DNA of 62,893 bases, counting the filler, from Lentisphaeria bacterium (GTDB lineage: Bacteria; Verrucomicrobiota; Lentisphaeria; JABSQK01; JAWLHB01), in NCBI GenBank assembly GCA_041690595.1. It is 5 parts of 5 records of this genome, joined end to end, with 100 filler letters (N's around TTAATTAATTAA, not from the genome) between each part and the next. Parts side by side here need not be neighbours in the genome. Positions count along the whole stretch, not along the records: positions 1 to 20,565 come from JAWLHB010000009.1; 4 more parts are not named here. The stretch is one strand, 5' to 3'. Numbering within the stretch: the stretch's first letter is position 1; every line of letters begins with the position of its first letter. Under the pieces are notes generated by a model, which was not told the origin of the DNA, searched no databases, and worked only from the letters and a program-made list of their open reading frames with translations. Positions 10,059 through 62,880 of this stretch are shown here, piece by piece. The position numbers and the translations under genes are program-made.

Positions 10059-10868
10059 CTATCGGGCAGCCAGCCGGAGAAGCTCCTGGCCGGAGTCACC
10101 GCGCTGCATGTGGGCATCCGGCAAGGCAAAACCATTCATGAAGACCCGTCGCCAGTGGCGCGACGTGTTCGGTTTACTGCCATGCAGGGTGTACGGCCCA
10201 TAGGCGATCGCGTCCCCGGCCGCCAGCATCGGCGCCACCGCTTTCGCCAGTTCCGTCTTCGCGGCCAGCACCCGATCGCGATTCTCCTCGGTCAACCCAA
10301 GGTCTCCGAGCCGATGGCTTCCTGGAATCAGCTCCAAAGGTCCATTCCGCGCCGTCACGTCATCGAGCATCAAGGCGATTCGGACGAAGCTGCCGCGCCC
10401 ATTGACATCGCGGAAGCCGCCGCTCCCTGTGCCCAGATGTGCCACTCCCTGATGCCAGTGGAAGGCGGTTTCCTCCCGCGGCGACCTGTAATCCGCCTGA
10501 TTGACCAGCCGGATCATCTCCGAAGAGCCAAGCAGCTCGGCTGCCAGCGCCAGCAGGCGGGGATCGCGCCCGAAGCTGTCCAGCGCCGGGGCGATCTTCC
10601 CGCACCCAGCCACGTGGCGGATGTAGTAGCAGCCCCCATCGAGAGAGCGCCGATAGGTGAACCGCGCCCGATGATCCTCCACGCTGAAGACCGTGCCGGG
10701 CGCTGGGACCTCATGCGCCGCCACATACTGCTCCAGCACCTCCTCCGCGACCTCATGCAATCCATCGAAGGCCGATTGCAGTTCCTCCACCTCGACACTG
10801 TCGAAGAGCTGAGTCACGATCACATATCCGTTCTCGCCATACCTCTCGACGATATCCAGAGTCTTCAT
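10059..10868 (-). CDS. PhyH-family Fe(II)/2-oxoglutarate oxygenase with HxG motif (possible halogenase)
   Basis: 'WHQG', 'IALMLDDVTARNGPLELIPGSH', 'LHGSKPN..RHWRR'. Confidence 0.85.
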   Translation of the reverse strand: MKTLDIVERYGENGYVIVTQLFDSVEVEELQSAFDGLHEVAEEVLEQYVAAHEVPAPGTVFSVEDHRARFTYRRSLDGGCYYIRHVAGCGKIAPALDSFGRDPRLLALAAELLGSSEMIRLVNQADYRSPREETAFHWHQGVAHLGTGSGGFRDVNGRGSFVRIALMLDDVTARNGPLELIPGSHRLGDLGLTEENRDRVLAAKTELAKAVAPMLAAGDAIAYGPYTLHGSKPNTSRHWRRVFMNGFALPDAHMQRGDSGQELLRLAAR

Positions 10869-11143: not shown

Positions 11144-11186
11144 TGTTGCATCATCACTTGCAACATTACCCAGTTATCCTTATAGT
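11144..11186 (+). promoter_or_regulatory. Sigma70-type promoter TTGCAA-17-TATAGT overlapped by palindrome TGTTGCA-N8-TGCAACA
   Basis: -35 at 11158-11163, -10 at 11181-11186, palindrome 11144-11165, in an AT-rich intergenic region. Confidence 0.6.
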
Positions 11187-11192
11187 GATTAT

Positions 11193-11320
11193 AGAAAATG
11201 GGGCACGTCAACGTGTCGATTCCCCACGACACAGTGCCCCGGGATAAAGATCCCACCCCTGACAGCGCAATGCTGTCACCTCCCCACTGAGCGGCCTTTC
11301 CCCAGGCCGCTCTTTTTTTT
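11193..11320 (+). ncRNA. Candidate structured small RNA (three hairpins plus terminator)
   Basis: Stems 11200-11240, 11241-11254 and 11260-11278, then the terminator; promoter directly upstream; flanking genes are on the minus strand. Confidence 0.55.
11289..11320 (+). terminator. Intrinsic terminator
   Basis: GAGCGGCCT-ttcccc-AGGCCGCTC followed by T8. Confidence 0.85.
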
Positions 11321-11361
11321 GCCCTGAAGATGAATCCCATCAGCGCCGGAATGGTAAGCGG

Positions 11362-12498
11362 TCAGAGCTGCAACACCTGGCGGAGGATCCGCACCATGGC
11401 GTGATTGGCAGCCCCGTCCTTCACGGCGAAGCGCACCGACTGCCGCAGATCACTACCCATGTTGGTGGCATCGCGCACATAGAGGCCATGCTCGCGGCAG
11501 CGCTGAACCAACTCTGCCGCACTAAGCAGGTCATGACGCAGATGACACAGGATGAAATTGGTCGTGCTGGGGATCCGCTCGAAGACGCCCAGACTATCGA
11601 GCTCGGCTTCCAGTGCACCCCGCAGCTCATGCGTTTCCCGGTAGCGCTCCCGGTAATACTCGGGATCCTCCAGCGCCTTCACCGCCGCCACCTGACCGGG
11701 AAGACTCACCGCCCAGGGAGGCGAAATCGACCGTAGCCGTGCCGCCTCCTCCGCACACATCACCAGGTACGCCGCCCGCACTCCACTGAGCGCATAGACC
11801 TTCGACATCGACTTGCAGACGATCACGTTCGGCAACCCCGTCGCCACCTGCTCGACAGACTCCGCCGCCCCCACGTAGTCCACATACGTCTCGTCGATCC
11901 AGAGTCGCGTCTCCGCGGGAAGTTCGCGCAGCAGCGGCTCCAACTCCGCGCGGCGGAAGTGCGCGCCGGTCGGGCTGTTGGGATTGACCAGCACGATGAA
12001 GTCATACCTGCGGGAAAAGGCCTCGCGCAACGCCCTCGCGTTCAGCCGATAGCCATCGTCCGGCGGCAGGTGCAGCCGATCCACCCGGCAGCCGATCACC
12101 CGTTCCAGGATGTGCCGGTATTCGCCATACGACGGGTCCAGCACCAGTGCCCGTGAACCTGCCTCCAGCCATTCGCGCAGGCAGAGATAGATCAGGCTCG
12201 ACGAACCGGCCCCGGGAATGACGCATTCCACCGGCACCCCACGAACCGCCGCTATGGCGGCGATCATCCCTTCGCACTCCGTCGGCGGCGACGTCCGCAA
12301 CAGCCAGTCCAGATGCGCCCGCAACGTCTCCGCCACCCGCGGCGAAGGCGGAAACCACGCATCGAGGACATCCGCGTTGATGACATGCTCGCGCCGCGTC
12401 AGATCATCGAAGCGAGGGCCGATCGCATCGAAAAAGGCGCCGCCATGCATGCAGACAGCGACAGATGGATGCGTCAACTCATGGGAGAGGTCAGCCAC
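11362..12498 (-). CDS. PLP-dependent class I/II aminotransferase (HisC/CobD-like)
   Basis: 'LVNPNSPTG', 'IDETY', 'KSMSKVYALSGVRAAY'; AGGAGA RBS. Confidence 0.88.
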   Translation of the reverse strand: MADLSHELTHPSVAVCMHGGAFFDAIGPRFDDLTRREHVINADVLDAWFPPSPRVAETLRAHLDWLLRTSPPTECEGMIAAIAAVRGVPVECVIPGAGSSSLIYLCLREWLEAGSRALVLDPSYGEYRHILERVIGCRVDRLHLPPDDGYRLNARALREAFSRRYDFIVLVNPNSPTGAHFRRAELEPLLRELPAETRLWIDETYVDYVGAAESVEQVATGLPNVIVCKSMSKVYALSGVRAAYLVMCAEEAARLRSISPPWAVSLPGQVAAVKALEDPEYYRERYRETHELRGALEAELDSLGVFERIPSTTNFILCHLRHDLLSAAELVQRCREHGLYVRDATNMGSDLRQSVRFAVKDGAANHAMVRILRQVLQL

Positions 12499-12615
12499 GG
12501 CACGTTTCTCCTGTTAATCGGTCATGGTCTGCAGTACCATACCCCCTGCCGGCGCGGATGCGATCTATAGTAGGTGCATTCTCACGCTCAATCATGCCAC
12601 AGGAGGCAGATCCCC

Positions 12616-14385
12616 ATGTCCATCCCCCGCCAGCTCATCATCATCCTCTTCGCACTCGCTCTGCCGCTGCTGGCGGAAGAGGATATCGGCCGGATTCTCT
12701 TCGTCGTCACCAATCACACCGAACTGGGCACAACCGGCAGGCAGACTGGCTACTTCCTGTCGGAAGTCACGCATCCGCATCACGTGCTCCACGAGGCCGG
12801 CTACAAGATCGACTTCGTGAGCCCGCAAGGCGGAGCCGTCCACATGGACCCCAAGAGCCGCAATCTCGATGATCCCATCAATCGACGCTTCGTCGCTGAC
12901 AAAGCCGTGATGAAGCGGTTGGAGACCACCCTTTCCCCGGCGCAGGTGGAGCCGAAAGCCTATCGCGCCATCTTCTTCGCCGGCGGCCACGGTGCCATGT
13001 GGGATTTTCCGAATAACGAGCGGCTCGCCGACATCACCGCGACCATCTATCAGGCAGGCGGGATCGTCGCCGCCGTCTGCCACGGTCCAGCCGGACTGGT
13101 CAACGTCACCCTGGAGAACGGTCGCCACCTCCTCGCCGGCCATCGCGTCACCGGCTTCACCAACGCGGAAGAGGAGGCCGTCAAGCTCACTGGCCAGATG
13201 CCCTTTCTCCTCGAAACGAAACTGAAGGAGCGCGGCGCCCACTTCATCGGCGCCCCCGATTTCCAGGAGAACGCCGTCGTCTCCGGCCGCCTTGTCACCG
13301 GCCAGAATCCCGCCTCCGCCACCGCCGTCGGCTCGGCCATCAAAGCCTTGCTCGCCGGCACCAGGCCCACGCTCGATCTGGTGGCTGAATCGCCGCACCA
13401 GTGGACCGGCATCGCCCTCTCCCAGCAGGGCCGCACCTTCGTCAACTTCCCACGCTGGAGCGACAGCATCCCCATGTCCGTTGGCGAACTCCAGGCCGAC
13501 GGCACCCTGAAACCCTATCCCAACCAGCTCATTAACAGCTGGGAAGAAGGCAAGGATCCAGCCGACCATTTCGTCTGTGTGCAGAGCGTTGTCGTCGACA
13601 ATCGCAATCGCCTCTGGATTCTCGACCCCGCCAACCCCCGATTCAAGGGAATCGTCGCCAGCGGACCAAAGCTCATGCAGGTCGACTTGGAAAGCAATCA
13701 GCCCCTCCGCACCTACCGCTTCGTGCCTCCTGTGATCCATCCGGACAGCTATCTCAATGATGTCCGCGTCGATACCGAACGCAACATCGCCTACATCAGT
13801 GATTCCGGCCGTGGTGCCATCATCGTCCTCGACCTCGAAAGCGGCAAGGCCCAACGGCGACTCGACGGCCATCCATCCACCTCCGCCGCCGACATCGACC
13901 TCATCATCGGCGGCAACCCCTGGCGACGCCCCGACGGCTCACGGCCGCAAGTGCACTGCGACGGCATTGCCCTCACCGGCGACGGCGATACCCTCTACTA
14001 TCAGGCGCTCACCGGCCGCCACCTCTACAGCATCCCCACCATACACCTGCGCGATGCCGCACTCGGCGACGAAGAGCTGGCCGACCATGTCGAGCTTCGT
14101 GTCGAAGCAGGCGCCTCCGACGGCCTGATCATCGGCCCGGACGGCTCCCTTTATCTCTCCTCCCTCGAGTATGATGCCGTGCGACGCTGGAAGCCCGGCA
14201 TGGACTATCCAGAGATCCTTGTTCAGGATTCTCGCATTTCCTGGCCGGATTCTTTTGCCTTCGATTCGGATGGGTGGCTATATTTCACCACCAGCCAGAT
14301 TCACCATGGACAGGCGCCGCCGGAACCCTACCGTATCTACAGGGTCAAACCATGGACAAAAGCCACCCCAACCTCGACCCCATGA
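12616..14385 (+). CDS. Exported DJ-1/PfpI domain fused to a major-royal-jelly (yellow/MRJP) beta-propeller
   Basis: AGGAGG RBS, signal peptide, 'GYFLSEVTHP', 'FAGGHGAMWD', 'AVCHG', 'VTGQNP'; then 'FVNFPRWS', 'LWILD', 'SYLNDVRVD', 'WPDSFA'. Confidence 0.85.
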   Translation: MSIPRQLIIILFALALPLLAEEDIGRILFVVTNHTELGTTGRQTGYFLSEVTHPHHVLHEAGYKIDFVSPQGGAVHMDPKSRNLDDPINRRFVADKAVMKRLETTLSPAQVEPKAYRAIFFAGGHGAMWDFPNNERLADITATIYQAGGIVAAVCHGPAGLVNVTLENGRHLLAGHRVTGFTNAEEEAVKLTGQMPFLLETKLKERGAHFIGAPDFQENAVVSGRLVTGQNPASATAVGSAIKALLAGTRPTLDLVAESPHQWTGIALSQQGRTFVNFPRWSDSIPMSVGELQADGTLKPYPNQLINSWEEGKDPADHFVCVQSVVVDNRNRLWILDPANPRFKGIVASGPKLMQVDLESNQPLRTYRFVPPVIHPDSYLNDVRVDTERNIAYISDSGRGAIIVLDLESGKAQRRLDGHPSTSAADIDLIIGGNPWRRPDGSRPQVHCDGIALTGDGDTLYYQALTGRHLYSIPTIHLRDAALGDEELADHVELRVEAGASDGLIIGPDGSLYLSSLEYDAVRRWKPGMDYPEILVQDSRISWPDSFAFDSDGWLYFTTSQIHHGQAPPEPYRIYRVKPWTKATPTSTP

Positions 14386-17381: not shown

Positions 17382-18012
17382 CCCCATCGTCGTCGGCAAC
17401 TACTTCAACAAGTACGAGAGTGGCAACCCCCTCGTCCGCCGCCTGATGCAACGCTTCGCCCGCGGCTTCGACGAACTTGCCGCCCTCTCCGGCGCCACCC
17501 TCGCCCATGAAGTCGGCTGTGGCGAGGGATATCTCTGCGAGCGTCTCCTCACCGCGGGATTCCACGTAAAAGGCAGCGAACTTTCCCCCGACGTCGTCGC
17601 CGTCGCCAAAGCCCGCCTCGCCCACCATCCCGGCCTCATCGGCCTCAAAGCCGCCTCCATCTACGATCTCCAGCCGCGCCAGGATGCCGCCGGCCTCATC
17701 GTCTGCTGCGAAGTTCTCGAACATCTCCCCGACCCCGATGCGGCCCTCGACATCCTCGCCGGCCTGGCAGATCCATGGCTCCTCACCAGCGTCCCGCACG
17801 AACCGTGGTGGCGCATCCTCAACGCCGCCCGGGGCAAGTACCTCGCCCACCTCGGCAATACCCCCGGCCATCTCCAGCACTGGTCCCGCACCGGCTTTCA
17901 GCGCTTCCTCAACCAGCGCTTCGATATCGTCGCCAGCCGCCCCGTCTTTCCATGGACCATGTTCCTCGCCAAGACCAAAGAAAAGGGCGGCTCCCAGAGA
18001 GCCGCCCCATAG
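17374..18012 (+). CDS. Class I SAM-dependent methyltransferase
   Basis: 'HEVGCGEGY', 'CCEVLEHL', 'SVPHEP'; ATG overlaps the GT2 stop. Confidence 0.85.
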   Translation: MDDPIVVGNYFNKYESGNPLVRRLMQRFARGFDELAALSGATLAHEVGCGEGYLCERLLTAGFHVKGSELSPDVVAVAKARLAHHPGLIGLKAASIYDLQPRQDAAGLIVCCEVLEHLPDPDAALDILAGLADPWLLTSVPHEPWWRILNAARGKYLAHLGNTPGHLQHWSRTGFQRFLNQRFDIVASRPVFPWTMFLAKTKEKGGSQRAAP

Positions 18013-18050
18013 TTCGATTAGTCGGTAATCCTCAATGACCAGTCAGGTGA

Positions 18051-62795: not shown

Positions 62796-62880
62796 TGGTG
62801 CCCAGGGTGGGACTCGAACCCACACGCCTGTCGGCACTGGAACCTAAATCCAGCTTGTCTACCAGTTCCAACACCTGGGC
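62796..62880 (-). tRNA. tRNA-Leu (anticodon TAG)
   Basis: GCCCAGG/CCTGGGC acceptor stem, CTGGA-TTTAGGT-TCCAG anticodon arm, long variable arm, GGTTCGAGTCC, CCA end. Confidence 0.97.

Follow-up and report, generated by a model that had tools for sequence, protein, structure and literature searches.

A very likely, uncatalogued family of C-rich small RNAs in the order Lentisphaerales

A short transcription unit in the genome of a Lentisphaeria bacterium (GCA_041690595.1) can be regarded, together with its relatives, as a real RNA gene with high confidence. These loci very likely constitute an uncatalogued sRNA family restricted to one order, the Lentisphaerales. Across 20 loci, the RNA core is preserved amid differing flanks and neighbours, which upholds the first-pass annotation of the unit as an orphan, self-punctuated and uncatalogued C-rich sRNA. 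Comparison of the sequences favours, with reasonable though incomplete assurance, a chaperone-independent base-pairing repressor of mRNAs, similar to RsaE, sX13 and FoxI. Most relatives are probably read by an RpoE/SigW-like ECF sigma factor, and the window clade by means of a sigma-70-type promoter.

The functional kind (C-rich, anti-Shine-Dalgarno) is already well known; the family itself is uncatalogued. Two features lift it above the routine, the clade-wise split between ECF and sigma-70 promoters and a seeming want of the known chaperones. The lineage, for which no paper on regulatory sRNAs was found in an open-access library, thereby gains an sRNA family that is defined and can be aligned; the family also offers a short conserved bait for studying sRNA action where the usual chaperones were not found. 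The occurrence of ECF-type and sigma-70-type promoters on one RNA core also makes it a natural case of regulatory rewiring.

Locus and predicted transcript

The promoter, stems and terminator claimed for the unit were each located in the window (the whole stretch of 62,893 nucleotides that was analysed), confirming its coordinates as 11158-11320 (+). Positions 1-20565 of the window map to contig C9, and the remainder consists of N or falls outside this contig. The unit is antisense to both adjoining genes, as had been proposed, since both lie on the - strand. The features are as follows.

10059-10868 (-): PhyH-family dioxygenase gene, divergent upstream neighbour, not conserved
11158-11163 (+): -35 hexamer TTGCAA of a sigma-70-type promoter, with a 17-nt spacer to the -10 hexamer
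11181-11186 (+): -10 hexamer TATAGT, in the same register as the N(G/A)TC box of other members
11193-11320 (+): predicted sRNA of about 128 nt, putative start 7 nt past the -10 box
11200-11240 (+): variable 5' hairpin with an internal loop and the apical loop AUUCCCCA (11219-11226), outside the family core
11200/11234 (+): stem GGGGCAC/GTGCCCC
11213/11227 (+): inner stem GTGTCG/CGACAC
11241/11250 (+): stem GGGAT/ATCCC
11250-11259 (+): C-rich element 5' of the core hairpin; in the window copy only, part of it pairs with GGGAT (11241-11245)
11260-11278 (+): core hairpin TGACAGC/GCTGTCA (11260/11272), loop variable and not C-rich
11279-11288 (+): single-stranded linker CCUCCCCACU, the likely seed
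11289-11320 (+): intrinsic terminator GAGCGGCC/GGCCGCTC with loop UUCCCC (11298-11303) and U8
11289-11312 and 11313-11320 (+): terminator stem and T8 tract, respectively
11362-12498 (-): class I/II aminotransferase gene, CobD/HisC-like PLP enzyme, convergent downstream neighbour
62799-62880 (-): tRNA, the only Rfam gathering-level match in the window

The same-genome paralogue displays an identical spacing from the -10 box to its putative start, AGAAA. Between 10500 and 12000, one promoter-like and one terminator-like site were recorded, both belonging to the sRNA unit; the chance expectation is 0.4 and 1.0, respectively, so that each alone is at about the chance level. The region 11190-11325 folds with -57.2 kcal/mol as compared to -31.9 ± 3.3 kcal/mol for 200 dinucleotide shuffles (z -7.76), none of which was equally stable. 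The predicted accessibility in the window RNA is 0.97 for the linker 8-mer, 0.94 for the 5' loop 8-mer and 1.00 for the terminator-loop 6-mer. The models nearest to the aminotransferase are CobD and HisC, with scores under their cut-offs. In a 603-aa ORF at 12574-14385 (+) of the window, a DJ-1/PfpI domain is joined with a beta-propeller domain of the major-royal-jelly type.

Distribution of the family

BLAST of the 181-nt unit revealed a second copy in its own genome (G000:C20:28843-28919, 95% identity over the 3' 77 nt) and partial matches in genomes of the same order, and an HMM search of the whole source genome returned exactly two copies, that of the window and this paralogue (L026). A covariance model, R1, built from nine copies (the training rows), detected 12 firm copies of 62-87 bits in 10 of the 15 genomes of the order, three of them absent from the training set; within the order, the next-best score was 22.5 bits, and in a class sample of 151 genomes it was 28 bits. 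A tight pattern yielded nine matches in metagenomes, representing eight loci, all of 64-81 bits; two of these duplicate known copies, leaving six new loci. The metagenome rows were picked by a pattern that fixes stem letters, and the 5' arm of the hairpin, which it did not demand, is carried by all nine matches. A loose first pattern had matched at least 119 stretches, 80 of which were scored, with one member (L140, 87 bits, in a carrier labelled uncultured Lentisphaerales bacterium). L140 has the same letters as L023 and was counted once; the next of the 80 reached 33 bits and was without C-runs.

The rebuilt model, R2, adds a divergent pair, L033 and L197, in an 11th genome (G009). Both are treated as candidates only, because L033 was added by eye and the 32 bits of L197 barely exceed the background of the phylum, which reaches 31. 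The 45 bits of L033 with R2 are circular, as it scored 20 bits with R1 before being so added, and the place of L197 in the family rests on its likeness to L033 and on its promoter. Common to the pair are a long 5' extension that forms two hairpins and the linker CCUCCUCC, which lacks one base of the cuckoo RNA motif. Altogether, 20 distinct loci (12 firm, two candidates and six from metagenomes) were compared.

No copy was detected in four of the 15 genomes of the order (83-93% complete). Outside the order, the best R2 score in a 151-genome phylum sample was 31 bits, and such matches resemble plain terminators; no match to the family occurred among 72,556 plasmids and 50,697 phages, and none in viral contigs. 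Genomes carry one or two copies. The neighbouring genes and their orientation change from family to family, and the position of the RNA is kept within family f5 and within genus g2.

Several features were recorded around individual copies. In two loci of different subtypes, a divergent gene for queuine tRNA-ribosyltransferase (69% identical; L037:291-1421 and L192:1-666) stands upstream of the RNA and may mark an older location of it. At L192:980-1105, the 63-nt core is duplicated in tandem with two differences between the copies; a transcript that passes the first terminator would contain both modules, and an assembly effect is also possible. A tRNA gene (L031:735-806) converges on an RNA copy from about 180 nt downstream. 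A strong terminator right after a gene at L199:1501-1588 (G000:C19:78811-78898, -), with a 15-nt C/U-rich loop of CCCUCCUCUCUCC type, scores 27 bits with R2 and is a possible 3'-UTR element.

Anatomy and conservation of the RNA

The conserved core comprises the 3' ~70 nt, in which a C-rich strand is followed by a hairpin, then by a C-rich linker and finally by a terminator with a CCCC loop and U-tract. Its identity to the window copy is 67-97%, as compared to 38-56% for equal-sized flanks, at a locus GC content of 36-68%. The hairpin arms read GRCAGC/GYTGTC in 18 of the 20 loci, and the letters of the family terminator stem, GAGCGGYC/GGCCGCTC with a C-run loop, are unchanged or G-U variants in the same proportion (18/20). 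The terminator loop contains at least four C in a run in 19/20 loci, a run of at least three C occurs inside the 12 nt 5' of the hairpin in 18/20, and the linker carries CCUCC in 16/20 and lacks it in four. The terminator stem also recurs alone, without the rest of the RNA, at L048, L053 and L209, and may simply be a favoured terminator.

The 5' part varies in length from a few to about 70 nt across the family. The long 5' hairpin of the window copy is missing in the paralogue L026, L186 has a 5' fold of matching shape, built from different stem letters and closed by a UCUCCCCU loop (UCCCC), and L188 displays a smaller 5' hairpin with a UUCCC loop. The GGGAT/ATCCC hairpin was not seen in other window-type copies. 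Thus, the almost entirely folded unit of about 125 nt described earlier is borne out by its fold z-score, but what the family keeps is the 3' core, the long 5' hairpin being a variable add-on.

The fold z-scores of the 16 predicted transcripts tested range from -3.7 to -9.5 (60 shuffles each). In the pair counts, 97% of cells are paired and eight of the 15 pairs are invariant; G-U-tolerated changes occur at two positions (in seven and five rows), and the compensatory cells number two, both in the divergent row L033. The covariation score of 0.091 is equalled by that of a control slid by +3 (0.092). The structure is therefore backed by its stability, wobble changes and lineage-specific stem extensions, and not by covariation. 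Of the check proposed at first pass, homologues could be gathered (20 loci) but their covariation is weak. The near-invariant stem letters are unexplained by a pure pairing model.

Promoters and sigma factors

The sigma-70 pattern (TTG-16/17-TAnnnT with at least eight of 12 consensus matches) is present in all seven window-type copies, in one of the 13 others and in two of 32 control loci, which are weak non-member matches. The ECF pattern, (A/G)(A/C)AAC-N16/17-N(G/A)TC, occurs in 12 of the 13 non-window-type copies and in none of the seven window-type copies or the 32 controls. It was derived from these same loci; L187 and L197, found after the motif was first noted, both carry it. AAC at -35 and CGT/GTC at -10 are given as ECF hallmarks in PMC8103513; this hallmark, which is expected of ECF-dependent sRNAs of the MicA/RybB/FoxI/GsrN type, is displayed by the same 12 copies and is absent from the window's own.

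The paralogue on G000:C20 has the promoter TTGCAT-17-TATAGT. In the window copy, TTGCAAC-N16-TATAGT keeps AAC in register, which suggests a replacement of the -10 box. Sigma-54 and sigma-28 readings were also considered and, by eye against the consensus, do not fit.

A survey of 21 ECF-sized sigma genes in five relatives revealed one orthologous group (61-74% identical) with a member in the source genome; the gene next to the sigma gene on its downstream side has, as judged by eye, a zinc-binding motif of anti-sigma type. The nearest models are SigW and RpoE, with scores under their cut-offs. The element GGAAC-N16-TGTCnAA lies at or upstream of the candidate gene's own start in all five genomes examined, its -10 box overlapping the presumed ATG in four. 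In G004, the candidate is the sole full-length ECF-sized match among six sigma matches. The -35 elements of the sRNA (GCAAC, GAAAC, AAAAC) differ from the GGAAC of this group, so that the match, which suggests a sigma factor of this kind for the relatives, is close and inexact.

In the source genome, genes for a zinc peptidase and a trypsin-PDZ (DegP-type) protease are each preceded by a similar motif, and one for a glycine-zipper protein by the ECF motif of the sRNA type. The genome-wide excess of the motifs upstream of genes is small as compared to spacer controls (7 vs 1 and 4; 5 vs 0 and 2). These ECF-type motifs, 5' of the DegP-type protease, the neutral zinc peptidase and the glycine-zipper protein (L252, i.e. 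G000:C21:131397-133064, L253 and L254), mark a possible envelope-stress regulon. A second orthologous ECF group (L221, L225, L231, L218 and G000:C34 near 57940) carries TGAAT-N17-CGTCnAA about 30 nt 5' of the start in five of five genomes, a clean autoregulatory promoter.

Anti-Shine-Dalgarno pairing and proposed mechanism

Shine-Dalgarno (SD) use is evident in the source genome, where AGGAG is enriched 9.7-fold and GGAGG 4.9-fold 5' of 4667 ATG starts; the starts are from a purpose-made caller (5426 genes), and some are wrong. The 16S rRNA is unassembled in this genome, and its 3' tail, GAUCACCUCCUUU, was hence taken from two relatives of the order. The window linker with its preceding bases shares UCACCUCC with this tail, and 8 nt are common to the tail, the window-type copies and L028. 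Of 5020 genes, 91 have a 7-mer complementary to the linker in their SD window, as compared to 31-51 in four control windows; for 8-mers, the counts are 18 as compared to 4-8. The earlier claim that the unpaired patches resemble anti-SD sequences thus holds for the linker, the complement of which is about two to four times enriched in SD windows, but not for the other three of the four C-rich patches, which are hardly so. As the linker is also predicted to be 97% open as an 8-mer, it is the likely seed. Shuffled C-rich seeds prefer SD windows too (46-92 vs 30-72, as compared to 115 vs 57-96 for the real seed), and the preference is therefore largely compositional.

Among the top 16 predicted targets in the one genome scanned in full, no common function was found, including no envelope or stress theme, and 30 sampled GGGGAGGT-ATG loci, out of 135 matches counted across the order, had no shared gene. 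Adenylylsulphate kinase, the best predicted site with a 9-nt complement, was rejected as a conserved target, the site being present in one of 12 orthologues. Hfq was found in none of the 15 genomes, eight of which are at least 90% complete, and neither ProQ nor Jag/KhpB in any of five. SpoVG, a lead from PMC4959528, in which Lentisphaerae occurs only in a reference, was likewise rejected as a partner (0/15 genomes).

These observations are consistent with an independently transcribed, trans-acting regulatory sRNA of about 70-140 nt, present in two copies in the source genome. The conserved two-hairpin 3' scaffold would keep two or three C-rich strands open, and the variable 5' part may often contribute another. 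The linker (CCUCCCC in the window) would pair with the G-rich SD regions of several mRNAs and block ribosome loading with no need for Hfq, and the CCCC loops may bind G-runs in the manner of sX13. In most of the order, transcription by the RpoE/SigW-like ECF sigma would make the RNA a repressing arm of a stress response, and the window clade would use its sigma-70-type promoter in the same register. As judged from the sequences, transcription, base-pairing action and repression are each probable.

A more elaborate combination can be put forward tentatively, with the odds against it: the family would be the RNA arm of an RpoE/SigW-like ECF stress response in an order of the PVC lineage in which no Hfq, ProQ, Jag/KhpB or SpoVG was found, its letter-conserved stems would bind a novel RNA chaperone, and one clade, that of the source genome, would have moved to a sigma-70 promoter by swapping the -10 box in register and adding modular 5' hairpins with C-loops.

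Other explanations of the locus

A protein-binding or decoy RNA, in which the stems and C-runs form the site of a specific protein (a chaperone, nuclease or ribosome-associated factor) and the likeness to the 16S tail reflects mimicry instead of an mRNA seed, is possible but doubtful. It would account for stem letters that stay unchanged or G-U variant in 18 of the 20 loci over 36-68% GC with compensatory change almost absent, for the lack of a detected conserved target, for the 8 nt shared with the 16S tail in window-type copies and L028, and for the two similar modules, each a C-run with a GA..GC hairpin, and the tandem core of L192. However, the metagenome members were chosen by a pattern that fixes these very letters, the same terminator stem stands alone elsewhere and is perhaps just a favoured terminator, and no linked candidate protein gene was found. 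CsrA is present in four of five genomes; it prefers GGA, and the loops here are without GGA.

A cis-acting leader (attenuator or riboswitch), the terminator of which controls the downstream gene, is very unlikely. It is suggested by family f5, where in four of five genomes the RNA precedes a gene for a PatB-family C-S lyase in the sense orientation, and by the paralogue L026 with a sense gene 85 nt downstream. Gene orientation largely refutes it, as the window, L186 and L191 have a convergent gene downstream and the gene in this place is not the same from family to family; in addition, the patB start of L032 is about 550 nt away, and inspection found no conserved competing antiterminator pairing. 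A conserved link to aminotransferases was also rejected, the window gene being no orthologue of the PatB genes, with which it has about 25% identity in short stretches.

It is still less probable that there is no RNA gene at all and that the locus is instead a dispersed repeat, a miniature mobile element or a common terminator flanked by chance sequence. Window-type copies do stand in differing neighbourhoods and the terminator stem is recurrent, but there are one or two copies per genome, the orientation from promoter to U-tract is fixed in 19 of the 20 loci, the position is kept in f5 and genus g2, and no match was found in the plasmids, phages and viral contigs searched. Several copies also terminate nothing else, as no sense gene precedes them.

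A short peptide gene, either of 30 codons (11198-11290) or with an internal 6-codon frame, is scarcely credible. The longer ORF does exist, 5 nt past the predicted start, and the shorter one occurs in five of seven near-identical window-type loci; but the 30-codon frame is found in one of 19 loci examined, which refutes this earlier alternative as the function of the family, and the 6-codon frame in none of 12 other loci. Moreover, any ORF of at least five codons is lacking from this region in L191 and in the f2-g2 copies, and the lengths of linker and loop differ by non-multiples of three.

That the RNA is a remote member of SuhB/MmgR (RF00519), its best Rfam match at 25.3 bits, in which hairpin, CCUCCC and terminator follow one another in the same way, is equally hard to credit, since the gathering score is 41, none of the 15 genomes of the order passes it, unrelated loci score 21-26 bits, no other member of the sRNA family is in the best 15 listed, and Hfq, needed there, was not found here; as a positive control, the model scored over its cut-off in the panel of Caulobacter (one of 14). 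An ordinary GC-rich terminator, as judged by its fold, at 17970-18044 (-) of the window scores 25.8 bits with the SuhB model, equal to the sRNA.

Comparison with known RNAs

Both 6C and RsaE are included in Rfam. The search with Rfam 15, which took in 6C, RsaE and Acido-Lenti-1 (RF01687), gave tRNAs as the only gathering-level matches both in the window and in 15 member loci. No such match fell on the sRNA, in agreement with the first reading, which did not recognise the family. Acido-Lenti-1 is the Lentisphaerae motif listed in PMC2864571. In the open-access literature on Lentisphaerae, no paper describing such an sRNA was found; an uncurated motif in the supplements of large surveys is possible.

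The UCCC-motif sRNAs of the RsaE type in Staphylococcus aureus bind SD regions by this motif and block initiation; their expression is Hfq-independent and for some under alternative sigma factors (PMC2790875). As described there, they resemble the present RNA in having several unpaired C-rich motifs and their own terminator, but they belong to another phylum and have no sequence or Rfam match to it, and the stems here are conserved letter for letter. The Hfq-independent sX13 of Xanthomonas, with about three stems and CCCC/CCCCC motifs, is reported to pair with G-runs near start codons rather than with a strict SD, which fits the linkers without CCUCC (PMC3771888). Its C-runs lie in apical loops, whereas two of the three conserved C-runs here are in linkers, and sX13 is discussed there as residing at the polA locus, whereas the locus here moves.

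Two sRNAs under ECF sigma factors offer a parallel for control. FoxI of Fusobacterium nucleatum is sigma-E-dependent and represses at the SD in a species without Hfq (PMC9546586). GsrN of Caulobacter, which acts through a C-rich loop at G-rich sites of mRNAs, undergoes Hfq-dependent processing and activates katG (PMC5869019). As far as these accounts describe them, neither is homologous to the present family, in which the ECF link is motif-based and does not extend to the window copy.

MmgR/SuhB (alpha-r8), the nearest Rfam model, is similar in size and in its order of hairpin, anti-SD stretch and terminator. It is, however, alphaproteobacterial, NtrC-controlled and Hfq-dependent according to its descriptions (PMC7143759; bioRxiv 10.64898/2025.12.09.693200), and the score of 25 against the required 41 bits is no better than background.

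The cuckoo RNAs (alpha-r14, CcsR) carry CCUCCUCCC in every hairpin loop on hypervariable stems (PMC4615179). They are likewise modular, C-rich anti-SD RNAs of which several copies are possible, and the linkers of G009 carry CCUCCUCC; in the present family, however, the loops of all 20 loci are of GCAAU and UUCCCC type with none reading CCUCCUCCC, the stems hardly vary, and it is the linker that carries the anti-SD sequence. Of the two likenesses noted at first pass, that to RsaE stands as one of C-rich class, while the RNA is built unlike the cuckoo RNAs in both stems and loop motif, so far as these are described. The present sRNA family is thus a member of none of RsaE, sX13, FoxI, GsrN, MmgR/SuhB and the cuckoo RNAs.
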